A DNA stretch of 64,000 nucleotides from a virus (lineage: Duplodnaviria; Caudoviricetes). The DNA lies in the IMG/VR virus record IMGVR_UViG_3300003316_000244, positions 1-64,000 of that record; one strand, given 5' to 3'. Positions within the stretch are counted from its first letter, which is position 1, and each line of letters opens with the position of its first letter. The notes below the pieces were generated by a model. It worked only from the letters and a program-made list of their open reading frames with translations, searched no databases and was not told where the DNA came from. Positions 28,327-34,798 of this stretch are shown here, piece by piece. Made by a program: the position numbers and the translations under genes.

Positions 28327-28389
28327 TAATCTAAATTTAGAAATTTTATTCTGATATGTAAAATTATCAAATTTTAATGACTCTTAAAA

Positions 28390-28437
28390 AAAATATTATC
28401 AATCTTTTTAAAGAAATAAAAAAATTGATAATATTTT
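28390..28437. repeat. 14-bp inverted repeat
   Basis: AAAATATTATCAAT ... ATTGATAATATTTT with 20-nt spacer. Confidence 0.7.
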
Positions 28438-28513
28438 AGATTTTTTTTAAAAATTTAATTATTTTTTAATAATTAATTTCTTTTTTTTCTTTTTAAGACA
28501 GTTACACATAATA

Positions 28514-28542
28514 AATCTTTAAACATAAATAGTTTAAAGATT
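28514..28542. repeat. 11-bp inverted repeat with 7-nt spacer
   Basis: AATCTTTAAAC-ATAAATA-GTTTAAAGATT. Confidence 0.7.
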
Positions 28543-28549
28543 AAATATA

Positions 28550-28579
28550 AAAATGGCACTTTAAAAAAAATGCCATTTT
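28550..28579 (-). terminator. Probable terminator downstream of the HTH gene
   Basis: AAAATGGCA ... TGCCATTTT stem with T-run on the minus strand. Confidence 0.55.
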
Positions 28580-28590
28580 ATTTTTGTAAA

Positions 28591-29454: not shown

Positions 29455-30066
29455 TTATGATTCAATAGCCTCTTCTTCATTTTCTCTTTCAATTATTTCA
29501 TCAATAATTTCAAGTTTTAATGCTTGTTGTGGATCAATGTACCAATCTTCTTTCTGACTATAAATTTTTTTAAGTTTATTTTTTGAAATTTTAGTTTTAC
29601 TAACAACAATTTCTTCCATTATTTCCATCAACCTTGTATTTTCTTCAACATCCATTTCTTGCTTTCTAGCTTCTCCACCAGAAGAATCACTACTGATTTG
29701 ATGATACATTAATGTTGAATGTTTATAACAAAATCTTCTATGACCAGAAATAAGAATAATAAAACCAGAACTCATGGCAGAACCAGTATAATATGTCCAT
29801 ATTGGGGTATTAGAGGCTTCGATGACACCAACTAAACCAAGAGCAGAATAAATATCACCACCGTAACTATCTAAATAAAGTTTAATTGGTTTTGGCTTAT
29901 ATTCAAATCCATAAACTTTTGCTAACTGTACAAGCAATGCATCAGATTCATTTATTTCAAGAATTTTTTTCTTAACATAATAACCTAAACTTTCTTGTTC
30001 AACATCTCCAGCAAAAAATATTAATCTCTTTTTAGGATGGGGAAGATATATTCCATTTTCACTCAT
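29455..30066 (-). CDS. clpP: ClpP-family protease proteolytic subunit
   Basis: IKLYLDSYGGDI, GSAMSSG (catalytic Ser), RF...STLMYHQ (His), DWYIDPQQAL..IIDEI. Confidence 0.85.
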   Translation of the reverse strand: MSENGIYLPHPKKRLIFFAGDVEQESLGYYVKKKILEINESDALLVQLAKVYGFEYKPKPIKLYLDSYGGDIYSALGLVGVIEASNTPIWTYYTGSAMSSGFIILISGHRRFCYKHSTLMYHQISSDSSGGEARKQEMDVEENTRLMEIMEEIVVSKTKISKNKLKKIYSQKEDWYIDPQQALKLEIIDEIIERENEEEAIES

Positions 30067-30088
30067 TACAATTATTAACTACTGATAA

Positions 30089-30120
30089 CAAAATTATATA
30101 AAAACTTATTATTTGTCAAA
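30089..30120 (-). promoter_or_regulatory. Bacteroidota-type promoter for clpP and the early array
   Basis: TTTG-N20-TAATTTTG, perfect match. Confidence 0.7.
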
Positions 30121-30580
30121 TTTTAAAGAATTTTTTATTGTAAAATACTGAAATACAGATACAATCATTGATGTATGTACATAGAAATCCCTATCCTGCA
30201 TAATACCTGTTTAGGAAGAAGTTAAAATGAAATAATTAACTTAATATTAAACAAATATTGTAGGTAGATAATATTAAAATATATAATATTAAATTAGAAT
30301 TAATAAAATTAATATTATATAGATACCAGAATATTACCTCTAGCATAATGTAACATCCCTATCCTGCAAGGGGATTAAAATAATAAGTATTATGGTAAAT
30401 CTTTACAGATTATGCAGGTCTATGTTGTGGTTTTTCACATTGCATAGTATTCCTTACTATTCAATCATCAAACTAATATACCGTCAAATATTAGTTTTAG
30501 TATACATTATACTGATTCATCTTTTCTTATTGGCTAGTAACAATAAATGGAGTAAGAGAATCCTATTATAAAACCATTAT
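30121..30580 (-). ncRNA. Candidate structured non-coding RNA of unknown class
   Basis: No sizeable ORF; at least 8 hairpins, a 10-bp long-range inverted repeat, a 14-bp direct repeat; two promoter motifs at its 5' end. Confidence 0.45.
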
Positions 30581-30616
30581 AAATACAAAAATAATAATTA
30601 ATTATTATATGTCAAA
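30579..30616 (-). promoter_or_regulatory. Tandem host-type promoter and late motif firing into the non-coding region
   Basis: TTTG(30616-13)-N19-TATTTTTG(30593-86), directly followed by GTATTTAT(30586-79). Confidence 0.6.
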
Positions 30617-30635
30617 TTTTAATTAAAAAAATAAT

Positions 30636-31412
30636 TTATAATAAAATAGGTATTAGACCAGTATAATCATAACATTCCATAATTTCTGCTTTACTATTTT
30701 TTTCATTAAACCAAACAATAAAGCATTTACCTATTTTTAGGTTTGGTATTTTTCTATTCAAAATAAATTTATACATTGAAGTTTGTAATGAATACAAATT
30801 CATATGTGAATCATCTAAATGAGATAATGGAGTTTTTAATGTTTGAAAATTATTTGTTAATTTAAATTCTTTATTTGTTTTCCAATCATATATTTGGAAT
30901 TCTTGAGCTTTTATATTGAAAAATAAACCATCCATCATTCCTGCAATACCTATTGCTTCATCATATACGATGAATTCAAGTTTTATTGGAATTAATTTTC
31001 CATTTGTTTTTTGATAAAAATCATCAATTAAATTTTTGATAATATCAAATTCTTTTTTTATATTATCTTCACCTAGTTCACGAATAACCATATCATATGG
31101 ATAATCATATATTTTATTTAGAAAAAGATTTTCAATATAATTATGTACAATGCTGCCTTTTAATGTAGATTTTTTATTGATGGATTTCCAATCAGCTAGA
31201 ACTTCAGCTTGAGTCATTCCATATTCTTCAGCTTTTTTTAAACTCCATTTATTTTCATCAAATTTTTCTTGAAATTTATGTAAAAATGTTGTTACTGAAG
31301 TTAATTGTTTATAATTAACAAAATATTGATGTGTTTTATCTAAAAACTTTACATTATTAAATGTTGTAAAGAGTTCAAAAGGGATATCAATCTTAATTGA
31401 ATTTTTTTCCAT
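30636..31412 (-). CDS. PD-(D/E)xK exonuclease (Cas4/RecB-like)
   Basis: SVTT, KGSIVH..IE, EFIVYD...AGMMD, IYDWKTN, YSLQ..MY; no obvious Fe-S Cys cluster. Confidence 0.75.
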   Translation of the reverse strand: MEKNSIKIDIPFELFTTFNNVKFLDKTHQYFVNYKQLTSVTTFLHKFQEKFDENKWSLKKAEEYGMTQAEVLADWKSINKKSTLKGSIVHNYIENLFLNKIYDYPYDMVIRELGEDNIKKEFDIIKNLIDDFYQKTNGKLIPIKLEFIVYDEAIGIAGMMDGLFFNIKAQEFQIYDWKTNKEFKLTNNFQTLKTPLSHLDDSHMNLYSLQTSMYKFILNRKIPNLKIGKCFIVWFNEKNSKAEIMECYDYTGLIPILL

Positions 31413-31426
31413 TAAAGCAAATATAG

Positions 31427-32311
31427 TTAATTTATAACTATATTATTGGATAATATTTTATTAAAATCAGCATTTTCTAGTTCTCGAATTAATGAATTTT
31501 TGTCAGGAGGTAAACTAGAATAACCATGAACATGTGATAGTAATACTTTTCTGATTAGATTTAATGCTAAAACATTATAATCACCTCTAACCATTGGATG
31601 ACCTTCATTAAATATTTTATCTCTATCTTCTTTGGTTATATTATTATTTTTAAATTTAGGATCACCACCATGAGTTAATAATGCTATTTTATCTGCCATT
31701 TCAATAATTGATGATCTTTCTCCTTTATCTTCAAAATTTAATCTTATAAATGCTGGATTTTTTTTATTTAGCATTAAAATATTATCAAACTCATGTTTAC
31801 CACAACGAATTTCCACTTCTCTTTCACGAAGTATTACATCAGTATTATTTCGTCCAACCAATGCAATATCTTCAATAGAAGGAAATACATTAATGGCATC
31901 AGGATTTGTTGAAATTGCTGGTTCTGGTCTACTTAAACCAACATTAGTTGTTGAAAGAGCAGTATAATATTCATCCTTTTTTATTTTTTGTGGTTGTGAG
32001 ATTACACTACCCATCCAATGTCTTCCTTGTTGTGGATGTTTTATATCATCAAAGAAAATTCGAACCATTTCACCTACTTTTGGATAATTCCAGAAAAATT
32101 TGGGTAAAATTGGATAACATTGAACCAAATTGGAGTTTGGTATATCTCGATCAATATCTGGAACTCTTACTTTTATACGTCCACCATCATTCTCATCAAT
32201 TATTGAAATAACTTCTCCAAAATATATTGATTTAACAATATTTTCTTTATTAGAATCTTCATTATAAACTGTTTTTGTTTTTTGAAGATATTTTTTGTTA
32301 TATCCTTCCAT
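31427..32311 (-). CDS. Baseplate hub/spike protein, gp5/VgrG-like OB-fold
   Basis: GEVISIIDENDGGRIKVRVP...CYPILP...PKVGEMV; late C-terminal HVH motif. Confidence 0.75.
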   Translation of the reverse strand: MEGYNKKYLQKTKTVYNEDSNKENIVKSIYFGEVISIIDENDGGRIKVRVPDIDRDIPNSNLVQCYPILPKFFWNYPKVGEMVRIFFDDIKHPQQGRHWMGSVISQPQKIKKDEYYTALSTTNVGLSRPEPAISTNPDAINVFPSIEDIALVGRNNTDVILREREVEIRCGKHEFDNILMLNKKNPAFIRLNFEDKGERSSIIEMADKIALLTHGGDPKFKNNNITKEDRDKIFNEGHPMVRGDYNVLALNLIRKVLLSHVHGYSSLPPDKNSLIRELENADFNKILSNNIVIN

Positions 32312-32507
32312 TATTTCGTTTATTTAATTCAGTAATAACATTAACCCATTGTAATTCAGCATCATAGAGTTCATTATGACGACTTTCTAATTCAAGTGTT
32401 AATTCAATAATTCTATTTTTTGTAGATTCATGATTTTCTACAATATCAGAACAAAGTTTTAGTAATTCTTCATTTGATAAATTTTCAATGTTATTGTGCT
32501 TGTCCAT
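32298..32507 (-). CDS. Small coiled-coil hypothetical protein
   Basis: Overlaps neighbours in a late operon. Confidence 0.55.
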   Translation of the reverse strand: MDKHNNIENLSNEELLKLCSDIVENHESTKNRIIELTLELESRHNELYDAELQWVNVITELNKRNNGRI

Positions 32508-32898
32508 AACCAGTTGCTATTTTAATTGTTGATCCTAATACTGTCATTGGACCACCATAATTTACACCAGAACCTTGAATGGTAATACCTGCAGGTATTG
32601 CTACAGTAATTATCATGTCTTCTTGAATGGCTTTAACAATTTCTTCAACCGCAATTCTCCACATAATTTCTTCAGGATTAACTGCACCTGATGGTAAATT
32701 ACCAATTGGTAATCCTGCTTCAGATTTTCTTTGAATGATTGAATTTGCTATTTTAGATGGTGATAAACCACTTTTCTTTGGTACACCAAATAAAATAATA
32801 GGTGCTGGTACTTTTGGTGTACCTGATGATTGTAATTTAAGTATTTTATTAAATCCTCCAATAATTGAAGTTAGATTATTAAAATCAATATCAGCCAT
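32491..32898 (-). CDS. Probable virion protein (135 aa)
   Basis: GTATTTAA variant at 32904-11; G/P-rich C-terminus. Confidence 0.6.
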   Translation of the reverse strand: MADIDFNNLTSIIGGFNKILKLQSSGTPKVPAPIILFGVPKKSGLSPSKIANSIIQRKSEAGLPIGNLPSGAVNPEEIMWRIAVEEIVKAIQEDMIITVAIPAGITIQGSGVNYGGPMTVLGSTIKIATGYGQAQ

Positions 32899-32914
32899 AT
32901 CTATTAAATACGGA

Positions 32915-32945
32915 TTTGTTAAAATCTTAATTATTTTTAAATTTG
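32915..32945 (+). promoter_or_regulatory. Bacteroidota-type promoter
   Basis: TTTG-N19-TAAATTTG, perfect match. Confidence 0.7.
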
Positions 32946-32964
32946 TAAAGAAAATAATATTTTA

Positions 32965-33177
32965 ATGAAAAAAAATTTAAAAAATATTTATCTACATAAA
33001 AAACTTTTAAAAAAAGATTTTTATAAACAAGAATATCAGTTTGTAATAGTACTAGTATCAGCTATTGATAATATTATAAAAATTAATTTTTTTATAGAAA
33101 ATCAACCTTTTAGTGGTATTGGAATTAAAAATAGTCAACCAACATTTTTAATATCTTTAGAATCAGAATTAAAATGA
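32965..33177 (+). CDS. Small hypothetical early protein
   Basis: Downstream of host promoter; ATGA overlap with next ORF. Confidence 0.5.
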   Translation: MKKNLKNIYLHKKLLKKDFYKQEYQFVIVLVSAIDNIIKINFFIENQPFSGIGIKNSQPTFLISLESELK

Positions 33178-33506
33178 AAAAATATAAAGAAGAAGTTAAA
33201 AAAGAATTATTAAAATGTAATAATTTTAACTATTGTATTGAATATGGTTGTCTAAAACTAAAAATAAAAACAACTAAGATAAATCATTTATTAATAAATC
33301 AATCCTATAGTTTTGAAGGTAGAATTGATTCTAATTGGTTATTTATTTATGAATCAAAATATAATCAGGTTTATTTATCATGTACATATTTTTGGTCAAA
33401 ATTTGAAAGTAATAACTTTTCTCATAATGAAATTATAAGAATTATGAATATTCTTCTTGAAAAAAACACTCAAAAAGAAGTATGTAATATTTTTTTGGAT
33501 AATTAA
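33174..33506 (+). CDS. Paralog-family protein (ELLKCNNFNY family)
   Basis: ELLKCNNFNY...NQSYSFEG...WLFIYESKY..VYLS..YFWSKFE. Confidence 0.65.
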   Translation: MKKYKEEVKKELLKCNNFNYCIEYGCLKLKIKTTKINHLLINQSYSFEGRIDSNWLFIYESKYNQVYLSCTYFWSKFESNNFSHNEIIRIMNILLEKNTQKEVCNIFLDN

Positions 33507-34798
33507 AAACTTAATGATTTTAATATTCCAGAATATGCAGTTAATTTTTCTCGTAAAATTACTTTGCTGGTATTTTTAACAATTTTAAGTAGCTCACCAA
33601 CTATTGCATTATAAATAAATTTATTAATTTCAGATTTTACAGAATTTGCTAAACATTCTGATAAATTTCTTGATGATTTAATATCTTCCTCTGAAGAAGA
33701 AGGCATTGTTAATACACCACCATTTTTGAAGCTCTCTATTAATATTTTCAATACCATTATTTGAGGTGTTGTTGTTATTGCTGTAACAAGTATTGATATT
33801 ATTTTTTTTATAATTCTTTTAAAGAATGAATCTTTTGCTGTCGTTTCATTTTGTCCCAATGATTGATTACCTAGACTACTATTCAATAAATTAGAATATT
33901 GATTAGCTACAAACTCAGGATCAGTTGATCCACTTATGTTATATATAAAATCTTTTGTTTGATCAAGATCAATTGAAGTATTGAAAAAACCACAACCAAG
34001 ATCGAGTACATTAATTCCCTTTTCTATATTTTCAGATTCTGTTTGAATATCTTTAATATCTTGATCTGTTAAATCTAAGCTATCTTCATTATTTATTAAT
34101 TTATCAATTATTTTTTTTAATTTTTGTTCAGCAACAATTTGTTCGTATGATTTATTTTGTTGGGAAGATATATTTCCAAAAATTTCATTAGTTATTTGAG
34201 TATTAAATTCTTTAGAATTAATTAGTTCTATTCCATCAACATAATTATTTAAAAATGTACCAATTGTGTCTGAACTATTCAATGGTTTAATTGTCATTGT
34301 ATCAGAAATTTCATTAAATTTTAATGACACATTACTACTATTAACTTCAGTACCCGGATTTCTGATTGCATTATATGATGATTTATCAAAATTTTGATTA
34401 TTATCTGAATAAATTAAGCTTCCTGTTGTGCTATCTGGATTAGTTTTTAATTTTCCATAATTATCAATTTTTTTTACAGGAATATCATATCCATTTGATA
34501 TGAAATTAGATGGTATACTTTGATTTGAGTTAAATGGTAATAATTGAGTTTTTAATGTTGATTTTAATAAAGGTTCTGCTTTTTTAACAAAATTAGTTAA
34601 AAGATCACCAGTTGATTTTTGTACGGCATTGCTACCTTTCAATTTAACTAAAAGATCAAGTAAAAATGGAATAATTTCTTTTTTATTATTAATTGATGTA
34701 TTAGAGTTTCCAGTATCATTAACTTCAACAGTCTGTCCAATTGATGTTAAAACTGAAACTTGAGTAAAAACATTTTTTTTATCGTTTATTAAACTCAT
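33503..34798 (-). CDS. Probable virion structural protein (431 aa)
   Basis: Co-transcribed with a late-motif gene; N/S/T-rich. Confidence 0.6.
   Translation of the reverse strand: MSLINDKKNVFTQVSVLTSIGQTVEVNDTGNSNTSINNKKEIIPFLLDLLVKLKGSNAVQKSTGDLLTNFVKKAEPLLKSTLKTQLLPFNSNQSIPSNFISNGYDIPVKKIDNYGKLKTNPDSTTGSLIYSDNNQNFDKSSYNAIRNPGTEVNSSNVSLKFNEISDTMTIKPLNSSDTIGTFLNNYVDGIELINSKEFNTQITNEIFGNISSQQNKSYEQIVAEQKLKKIIDKLINNEDSLDLTDQDIKDIQTESENIEKGINVLDLGCGFFNTSIDLDQTKDFIYNISGSTDPEFVANQYSNLLNSSLGNQSLGQNETTAKDSFFKRIIKKIISILVTAITTTPQIMVLKILIESFKNGGVLTMPSSSEEDIKSSRNLSECLANSVKSEINKFIYNAIVGELLKIVKNTSKVILREKLTAYSGILKSLSF

Follow-up and report, generated by a model that had tools for sequence, protein, structure and literature searches.

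The window analysed here, i.e., the whole stretch of 64,000 nucleotides, comprises the first 64 kb of an IMG/VR record of 75 kb whose estimated completeness is 23%, which suggests a phage genome of roughly 300 kb. It has a G+C content of 24.6% and is densely filled with genes that use the standard genetic code. The gap at 30067-30635, located between two genes of the minus strand, is, as had been noted before, the longest part of the window that lacks an open reading frame (ORF) of at least 60 amino acids. Its upstream neighbour (30636-31412, minus strand), previously described as Cas4-like, encodes a PD-(D/E)XK-type exonuclease (phrog_298 exonuclease, E 1e-21), of which distant homologues contain PF12705. 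The downstream neighbour (29455-30066, minus strand) encodes a ClpP-fold protease (PF00574, E 3e-20). The top PHROG of this product is a head maturation protease (phrog_94, E 3e-25), ahead of the ATP-dependent protease families, and the product may be a prohead protease rather than a ClpP pairing with a ClpX-type unfoldase. Further upstream, next to the nuclease gene, a block encoding products of 431, 135, 69, and 294 amino acids (31427-34798) is syntenic in all relatives examined; none of these products matched a PHROG, and the two that were searched against Pfam, of 431 and 294 amino acids, had no match there.

Regarding coding capacity, no convincing reading frame was detected in the gap under code 11, with TAG read as glutamine, or under code 4, in agreement with the earlier view that it contains no real ORF. 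The longest ATG-initiated ORF in the region of the RNA described below has 59 amino acids and is located on the antisense strand, compared to 20-38 amino acids in the homologues, and hence no ORF is conserved. A coding function, including one with recoded stops, is ruled out by the three genetic codes and by the lack of an ORF common to the homologues.

The minus strand of the gap is predicted to encode a structured RNA of approximately 440 nt (30142-30581), based on alignment, covariation, matches to the covariance models R1 and R2, and the folding z-score; the ends of the RNA were predicted from a promoter (5') and a terminator-like hairpin (3'). The closest relatives of the nuclease, with 68-69% identity, are encoded on short metagenome contigs, where a nuclease gene, a gap of approximately 500 nt, and a clpP gene follow each other. 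The gap of one such locus, L130, aligns with the minus strand of the window over approximately 390 nt (30184-30574), identical blocks alternating with paired changes, and the gap of L131, which derives from a second sample, is identical to that of L130. The covariance model of the 5' core (R1) was used to find further members of the family, and its top matches were L134 (E about 1e-3), in a gene-free gap beside the same nuclease gene, L204 (E 9e-5), on a contig of 327 kb, and L207 (E 6e-5), the latter two being located between genes for the same nuclease and protease; the sequence of L207 was encountered again in two other data sets (L292 and L293). Besides the window there are thus four distinct homologues (L130, L134, L204, and L207), all in related giant-phage contigs. 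The window and L130 constitute subgroup A, while L134, L204, and L207, which align well with each other, constitute subgroup B. The core that defines the family (P3 enclosing the junction of P4, P5 with P6 and P7, and P8) was found in the window, L130/L131, L134, L204, and L207/L292/L293, and the motifs GGAAU/AGAAAU, GCAAUG...AAC, and AUCCC...GGAU-GUU are conserved in the family.

Searches of other kinds did not extend the family. Exact and gapped DNA pattern scans of viral contigs returned nothing or chance matches, and a pattern scan of bacterial genomes led to stretches which, once fetched, did not contain the RNA; candidates from these scans were screened by BLAST or covariance model and rejected, with single-copy 14-mer matches taken as chance unscreened. 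BLAST and nhmmer comparisons of the gap with more distant relatives yielded low-complexity A/T matches only.

All five RNAs adjoin the nuclease gene, and the protease gene is located on the other side wherever the contig extends that far. The nuclease-RNA-protease block has been rearranged between lineages: in the window and in L130 all of it is encoded on one strand; L134, L204, and L207 have an inverted RNA; and L294 lacks the RNA. In the three loci with inversion the RNA is opposite in strand to the nuclease gene and divergent from the nuclease operon, and in L204 and L207 it is convergent with the protease gene, which the L134 contig does not reach. In L204 a gene encoding a LAGLIDADG homing endonuclease (L204:10760-11395, minus strand) directly follows the nuclease gene.

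A further locus, L132, is as close to the window as L130 with regard to its nuclease (68% identity) and protease (75% identity), and has in the same slot an element of similar size (L132:1170-1647, plus strand) with an unrelated sequence that is richer in G+C. This element has a folding z-score of -5.1, none of 100 shuffled sequences being as stable, and did not match Rfam, R1, R2, or any sequence among the loci fetched. It may represent another RNA gene, distinct from that of the window, which was swapped into the nuclease-protease slot.

Regarding transcription, the -33 element of the RNA promoter, TTTGACA (30610-30616, minus strand, with TTTG at 30616-30613), is located 19 nt upstream of the -7 box TATTTTTG (30586-30593), which fits the Bacteroidota sigma-A consensus TAnnTTTG. 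The -7 box of this consensus spans positions -12 to -5 in flavobacteria (PMC9723704), which places the predicted start of transcription near 30581. The promoter had been described as a perfect host promoter, which is correct for the Bacteroidota type (-33 TTTG/-7 TAnnTTTG) but not for the sigma-70 type (TTGACA/TATAAT), for which the best -10 element is TATTTT. At the aligned position L130 has the -7 box TACTTTTG, and a promoter of the form TTTG/TTG-N19-20-TAnnTTT(G/A) is present ahead of each of the five RNAs, with a constant distance to a common 5' sequence, AUA..GGUUUU. The motif GTATTTAT, which had been taken for a late promoter, overlaps the end of the -7 box of the RNA gene; its 18 occurrences in the window are close to the expectation from base composition, and it is not conserved in L130, so that the proposed combination of an early and a late promoter is unsupported. 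The separate promoter suggested for the clpP-like gene was recovered at 30089-30120 on the minus strand (TTTG at 30117-30120, 20 nt, and TAATTTTG at 30089-30096) and is conserved in L130 and L132. The two promoters of the window that flank the RNA gene are 83% identical over 24 nt, and all promoters read in the window, L130, L132, L134, L204, and L207 are of the Bacteroidota -33 TTTG/-7 TAnnTTTG type, suggesting that these giant phages have a Bacteroidota host. At the predicted 3' end, the minimum free energy (MFE) fold contains a weak putative terminator (30142-30178, minus strand), in which a hairpin (30155-30178) that was missed by a scan for G+C-rich terminators is followed by a U-rich stretch; the 3' ends of the subgroup B members have clearer structures of hairpin and U-run than the window.

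The predicted RNA folds into a core, in which the 12-bp helix P3 encloses several helices that meet at a junction (P4, P5 with P6 and P7, and P8), followed by a 3' domain, all positions being given here for the minus strand. The 5' leader ahead of the core contains two small hairpins; the 5' hairpin UUAUUG-loop-CAAUAA (30527-30546) corresponds to AUAUUC/GAAUAU in L130, with two pairs changed on both sides as judged by eye. In the long-range helix P3 (30500-30513 with 30342-30354), 3 of the 12 pairs are changed on both sides relative to L130, the closing helix reading AGUAUAAUG/CAUUAUGCU in the window and AGUAACAUA/UAUGUUGCU in L130, and its equivalent in subgroup B has 13 pairs, six of which are changed on both sides. 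Hairpin P4 (30471-30496; 9-10 bp, loop UUGACGGU) shows compensation that can be seen by eye, from AAACUAAUAU/AUAUUAGUUU in the window to GGCUGGUAU/AUACUGGCU in L130, with two A-U pairs replaced by G-C and three by G-U; its position in subgroup B is occupied by a larger domain of three hairpins with a UGAC-containing loop. Helix P5 (30373-30466; 30460-30466 with 30373-30379 and 30453-30456 with 30384-30387) encloses P6 and P7, and across both subgroups 8 of its 11 pairs are changed on both sides with 100% of the pairs kept. The two-part hairpin P6 (30420-30447; CUAUG/CAUAG and UGUG/CACA), which contains the conserved GGAAU, GCAAUG, and AAC, is invariant within subgroup A and has 5 of 9 pairs changed on both sides relative to subgroup B. 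Hairpin P7 (30399-30410) has a GNRA tetraloop, reading AUCU-GUAA-AGAU in the window and CUCC-GCAA-GGAG in L130, so that two of its four pairs differ on both sides while the loop remains of the GNRA type; subgroup B has a hairpin at this place with other loops. Hairpin P8 (30355-30372; CCCU/AGGG) is 100% paired in all five sequences.

The 3' domain comprises helix P9 (30266-30339; 30331-30339 with 30266-30274), in which one of nine pairs is changed on both sides, and helix P10 (30202-30259; 30248-30259 with 30202-30213), which encloses the hairpin AAGUUAA/UUAACUU (30219-30242). This inner hairpin is represented in L130 by AUGAUCU/AGAUCAU, so that by eye all seven pairs are kept with other bases. 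Several of the stems listed in the original prediction are therefore matched by counterparts in L130 that pair through different bases, namely AAACUAAUAU/AUAUUAGUUU, AUCU-GUAA-AGAU, UUAUUG/CAAUAA, and AAGUUAA/UUAACUU. The 13-bp stem of that list is present as an A/T hairpin of 13-16 bp at the tip of P9 (30280-30321) but is an insertion specific to the window, which L130 does not have, and the relatives do not retain the stems AGTATA/TATACT and ATAGTA/TACTAT, the bases of which belong to the covarying helices P3, P5, and P6.

Compensatory changes that keep pairs were counted in the collected homologues against shuffled and slid controls, a check which had been proposed together with the prediction. 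In subgroup A (window and L130), 12 of 92 pairs were changed on both sides (6.1±1.8 in shuffled and 0-2 in slid alignments) with 100% paired, and in the three sequences of subgroup B, 33 of 99 pairs were changed on both sides (13.1±2.6 shuffled, 1-6 slid) with 94.9% paired. For the core in all five sequences the corresponding count was 33 of 51 pairs, compared to 2-5 in slid alignments, and 98.6% were paired vs. 36-46% after sliding, a paired fraction that is inflated by the fitting of the joint alignment to the structure of the model, which leaves the slid control unaffected. These counts rest on five distinct sequences in two subgroups, with the core compared across all five and the 3' domain (P9 and P10) with L130 alone; the joint covariance model of the five sequences covers P5-P8 and is shorter than the full core. 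A search for covarying pseudoknots yielded invariant candidates only, on which covariation is uninformative, among them the pairing of UUUGCUUCA in the leader with UGAAGUAAA for subgroup B and that of CCUGCAUA with UAUGCAGG for subgroup A.

The alignments are also asymmetric with respect to strand. On the other strand, 23 G-U cells in subgroup A and 31 in subgroup B would become A-C mismatches, and the consensus folding energy of the given strand, i.e., the minus strand of the window, is -62.9 kcal/mol in subgroup A and -76.7 kcal/mol in subgroup B, vs. -41.9 and -61.2 kcal/mol for the reverse complement, an advantage of 21 and 15 kcal/mol, respectively. Both observations favour the minus strand. 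Regarding single sequences, the folding z-score test recommended at the outset gave -3.3 for the minus strand of 30181-30581, with none of 100 shuffled sequences as stable, and this fold reproduces the consensus helices. The z-scores of the full gap (-2.1 for the minus strand, -3.3 for the plus strand) are only modestly better than those of shuffled sequences, and a subgroup B member folded as a single sequence reached only -1.0.

None of the catalogued RNA families accounts for the locus. The whole window had no match to Rfam 15 (4227 models) at the gathering threshold, and with E-values up to 10 nothing credible was found in the RNA region, the models searched including those of GOLLD, ROOL, OLE, HEARO, group I/II introns, RNase P, tmRNA, 6S, riboswitches, and CRISPR repeats; the matches in the region at this level were a miRNA-like hairpin (23.9 bits vs. 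a threshold of 80) and CRISPR-DR62 (E 8, outside the RNA). Similarly, nothing relevant was detected in the regions of L130, L132, and L204. This outcome fits the suggestion of a novel RNA, and the judgement by eye that it does not resemble tRNA, tmRNA, or RNase P agrees with ARAGORN, which reported no such genes for the window and L130-L134, and with the lack of an Rfam match for RNase P or tmRNA. No description of this RNA was found in literature searches.

Thus, the central claim of the original prediction, a structured non-coding RNA of approximately 450 nt with its own promoter on the minus strand, is upheld by homologues with compensatory changes, by strand asymmetry, and by the lack of an Rfam match. 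As far as sequence comparison can tell, the locus is an RNA gene of no catalogued family, in which both the multi-domain fold and the promoter are conserved, and it is probable (roughly 0.8) that its product is a genuine structured RNA which is transcribed independently, acts in trans, and belongs to a new family. This RNA would be transcribed by the host RNA polymerase early in infection and would act in trans as a folded molecule, binding or sequestering a protein, or forming the RNA part of a ribonucleoprotein, via the conserved unpaired GGAAU, GCAAUG...AAC, and UGAC loop; the duplicated UGCAGGAUAGGGAU could be a further conserved unpaired binding motif, in subgroup A only. The size, the junction architecture, and the conserved unpaired blocks are the reasons for proposing, tentatively and at well below even odds, that it is a protein-binding RNA or the core of a ribonucleoprotein.

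Alternatively, the RNA could be a large ribozyme or a homo-oligomeric "ornate" RNA, similar to GOLLD, ROOL, and OLE in its working but unrelated to them, in which the unpaired nucleotides would be an active site or contacts between molecules. GOLLD and ROOL are large "ornate" non-coding RNAs, often of phages or prophages, for which cryo-EM has been reported, and are located in phages with a promoter of their own (PMC12286853). The RNA of the window shares this location and promoter, and like these RNAs it is the product of a large (at least about 0.4 kb), highly structured, non-coding phage gene with its own transcription signals. Also consistent with such a molecule are its length of approximately 400 nt, the long-range helix that closes a junction of several helices, the GNRA tetraloop, conserved single-stranded blocks, and self-complementary CCUGCA/UGCAGG elements in subgroup A. 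However, subgroup B does not conserve the CCUGCA/UGCAGG elements, and no model of a ribozyme or ornate RNA is matched. The window RNA is shorter than both GOLLD and ROOL, which it does not match even at E-values up to 10; the 64 kb of the window contain no tRNA genes, and the Bacteroidota-type promoter indicates a host phylum that differs from that of GOLLD and ROOL. A ribozyme or homo-oligomeric RNA is therefore considered rather unlikely, and a similarly low probability is attached to the broader idea of a new class of ornate RNAs with an activity of their own (ribozyme or self-assembling particle), expressed early by giant Bacteroidota phages from a host-type promoter, with the nuclease-protease slot serving as a swap site for RNA genes. 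The notion of a swap site derives from L132, where an unrelated element of this size with an even more stable fold occupies the slot.

Other large phage RNAs offer partial parallels. The group I introns of T4-like phages resemble the window RNA in size (250-500 nt), in having a GNRA tetraloop and long-range helices, and in their occurrence in large myovirus-like phages, but the window RNA is located between genes, has its own promoter, and has no Rfam intron match; no P7/R-S elements of group I introns were seen in it by eye. The stable T4 RNAs rnaC and rnaD have 120-140 nt and are encoded in a tRNA cluster. Like these and other orphan phage non-coding RNAs, the RNA of the window is encoded by a phage and predicted to be a separately transcribed unit, but with approximately 440 nt and a multi-domain fold it differs from rnaC and rnaD. 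Orphan structured RNAs of phages being already known, the novelty is the RNA family itself, and its importance is potential. Large RNAs with complex folds are rare and have historically turned out to be ribozymes, ribonucleoprotein cores, or self-assembling particles (GOLLD, ROOL, and OLE); a covariation-supported family of approximately 400 nt in giant Bacteroidota phages adds a candidate to this short list, and it comes with predicted ends, a promoter, and a testable secondary structure.

The adjacency to the nuclease gene in all five members, with the protease gene on the other side where the contig includes it, has been kept despite inversions and would be expected of an RNA partner (guide or cofactor) of the PD-(D/E)XK exonuclease or of the ClpP-like protease. 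This association is nevertheless quite unlikely, as many nuclease relatives at 43-56% identity are without the RNA within 3-10 kb, the nuclease and protease genes of L294 are separated by 3 nt with no RNA, and L132 carries a different element in the slot; an obligate partnership with either enzyme is ruled out by these same loci. The model R2 detected no member beyond the five known in 95 loci around nuclease relatives, and no RNA was found near the same nuclease gene in 80 metagenome loci and several long contigs. Likewise, R2 found no member in two viral records or three huge-phage genomes with a clpP resembling that of the window, and the record from which the window derives gave no second copy. 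The predicted RNA gene is therefore regarded as clade-restricted, and as most phages encoding this nuclease and protease do without it, it is dispensable for the basic function of these enzymes.

The 14-mer ATCCCTATCCTGCA occurs twice in the gap as originally described (30187-30200 and 30355-30368), compared to approximately 0.08 matches expected in 64 kb. In the RNA, the first copy of UGCAGGAUAGGGAU (30355-30368, minus strand) constitutes the loop and 3' strand of P8, and the second (30187-30200, minus strand) is located at the 3' end, where it could pair either with the 5' leader (30549-30565), which would close the RNA end to end as seen in the MFE fold of 30181-30581, or, together with its flank, with CCUGCAUAAU at 30409-30418. 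The latter option corresponds to the 10-nt long-range complement of 30195-30204 with 30409-30418, which is indeed present in the sequence. The second copy and its alternative partners are invariant, and covariation favours neither pairing. The duplication, far above chance and with both copies kept in L130, had suggested a CRISPR-repeat mimic, an RNA antitoxin, or another repeat-based decoy, which is now very unlikely: only two copies exist, each of them in a helix, subgroup B does not have the second copy and has a different sequence at the place of the first, the 14-mer is not enriched in viral contigs beyond single chance matches, and the sole match to a CRISPR repeat is the one outside the RNA at E 8. 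With 14 nt and an interval of 168 nt, the repeats also differ from CRISPR repeats in general, which have 24-40 nt and usually spacer-sized intervals. The idea of a CRISPR-repeat mimic is accordingly unsupported, and among the antitoxin, decoy, and scaffold roles of the original prediction none is favoured over the others by these data.

In the window and L130 the RNA is directly upstream of the clpP-like gene and on the same strand, as a cis-acting leader (riboswitch or attenuator) would be, but this reading is highly improbable because the conserved clpP promoter intervenes between the RNA and the gene and because L134, L204, and L207 encode the RNA on the opposite strand (convergent with the protease gene in L204 and L207), and no riboswitch model is matched. 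Equally improbable is a DNA-level element (replication origin or packaging site) or a neutral A/T-rich spacer with incidental stems, which would fit the A/T-richness, the several repeats and palindromes, and the plus strand of the whole gap folding below shuffled sequences, but not the compensatory changes, the G-U asymmetry, the advantage of 15-21 kcal/mol of one strand in consensus folding, or the conserved promoter at a fixed distance, and the cumulative GC skew has no inflection at the site.

Elsewhere in the window, the second largest internal ORF-free gap (28327-28590, 264 nt) is located three genes downstream of the clpP-like gene. Its G+C content is extremely low, with 12-13.5% in windows of 200 nt, and it could be a regulatory or origin-like region.
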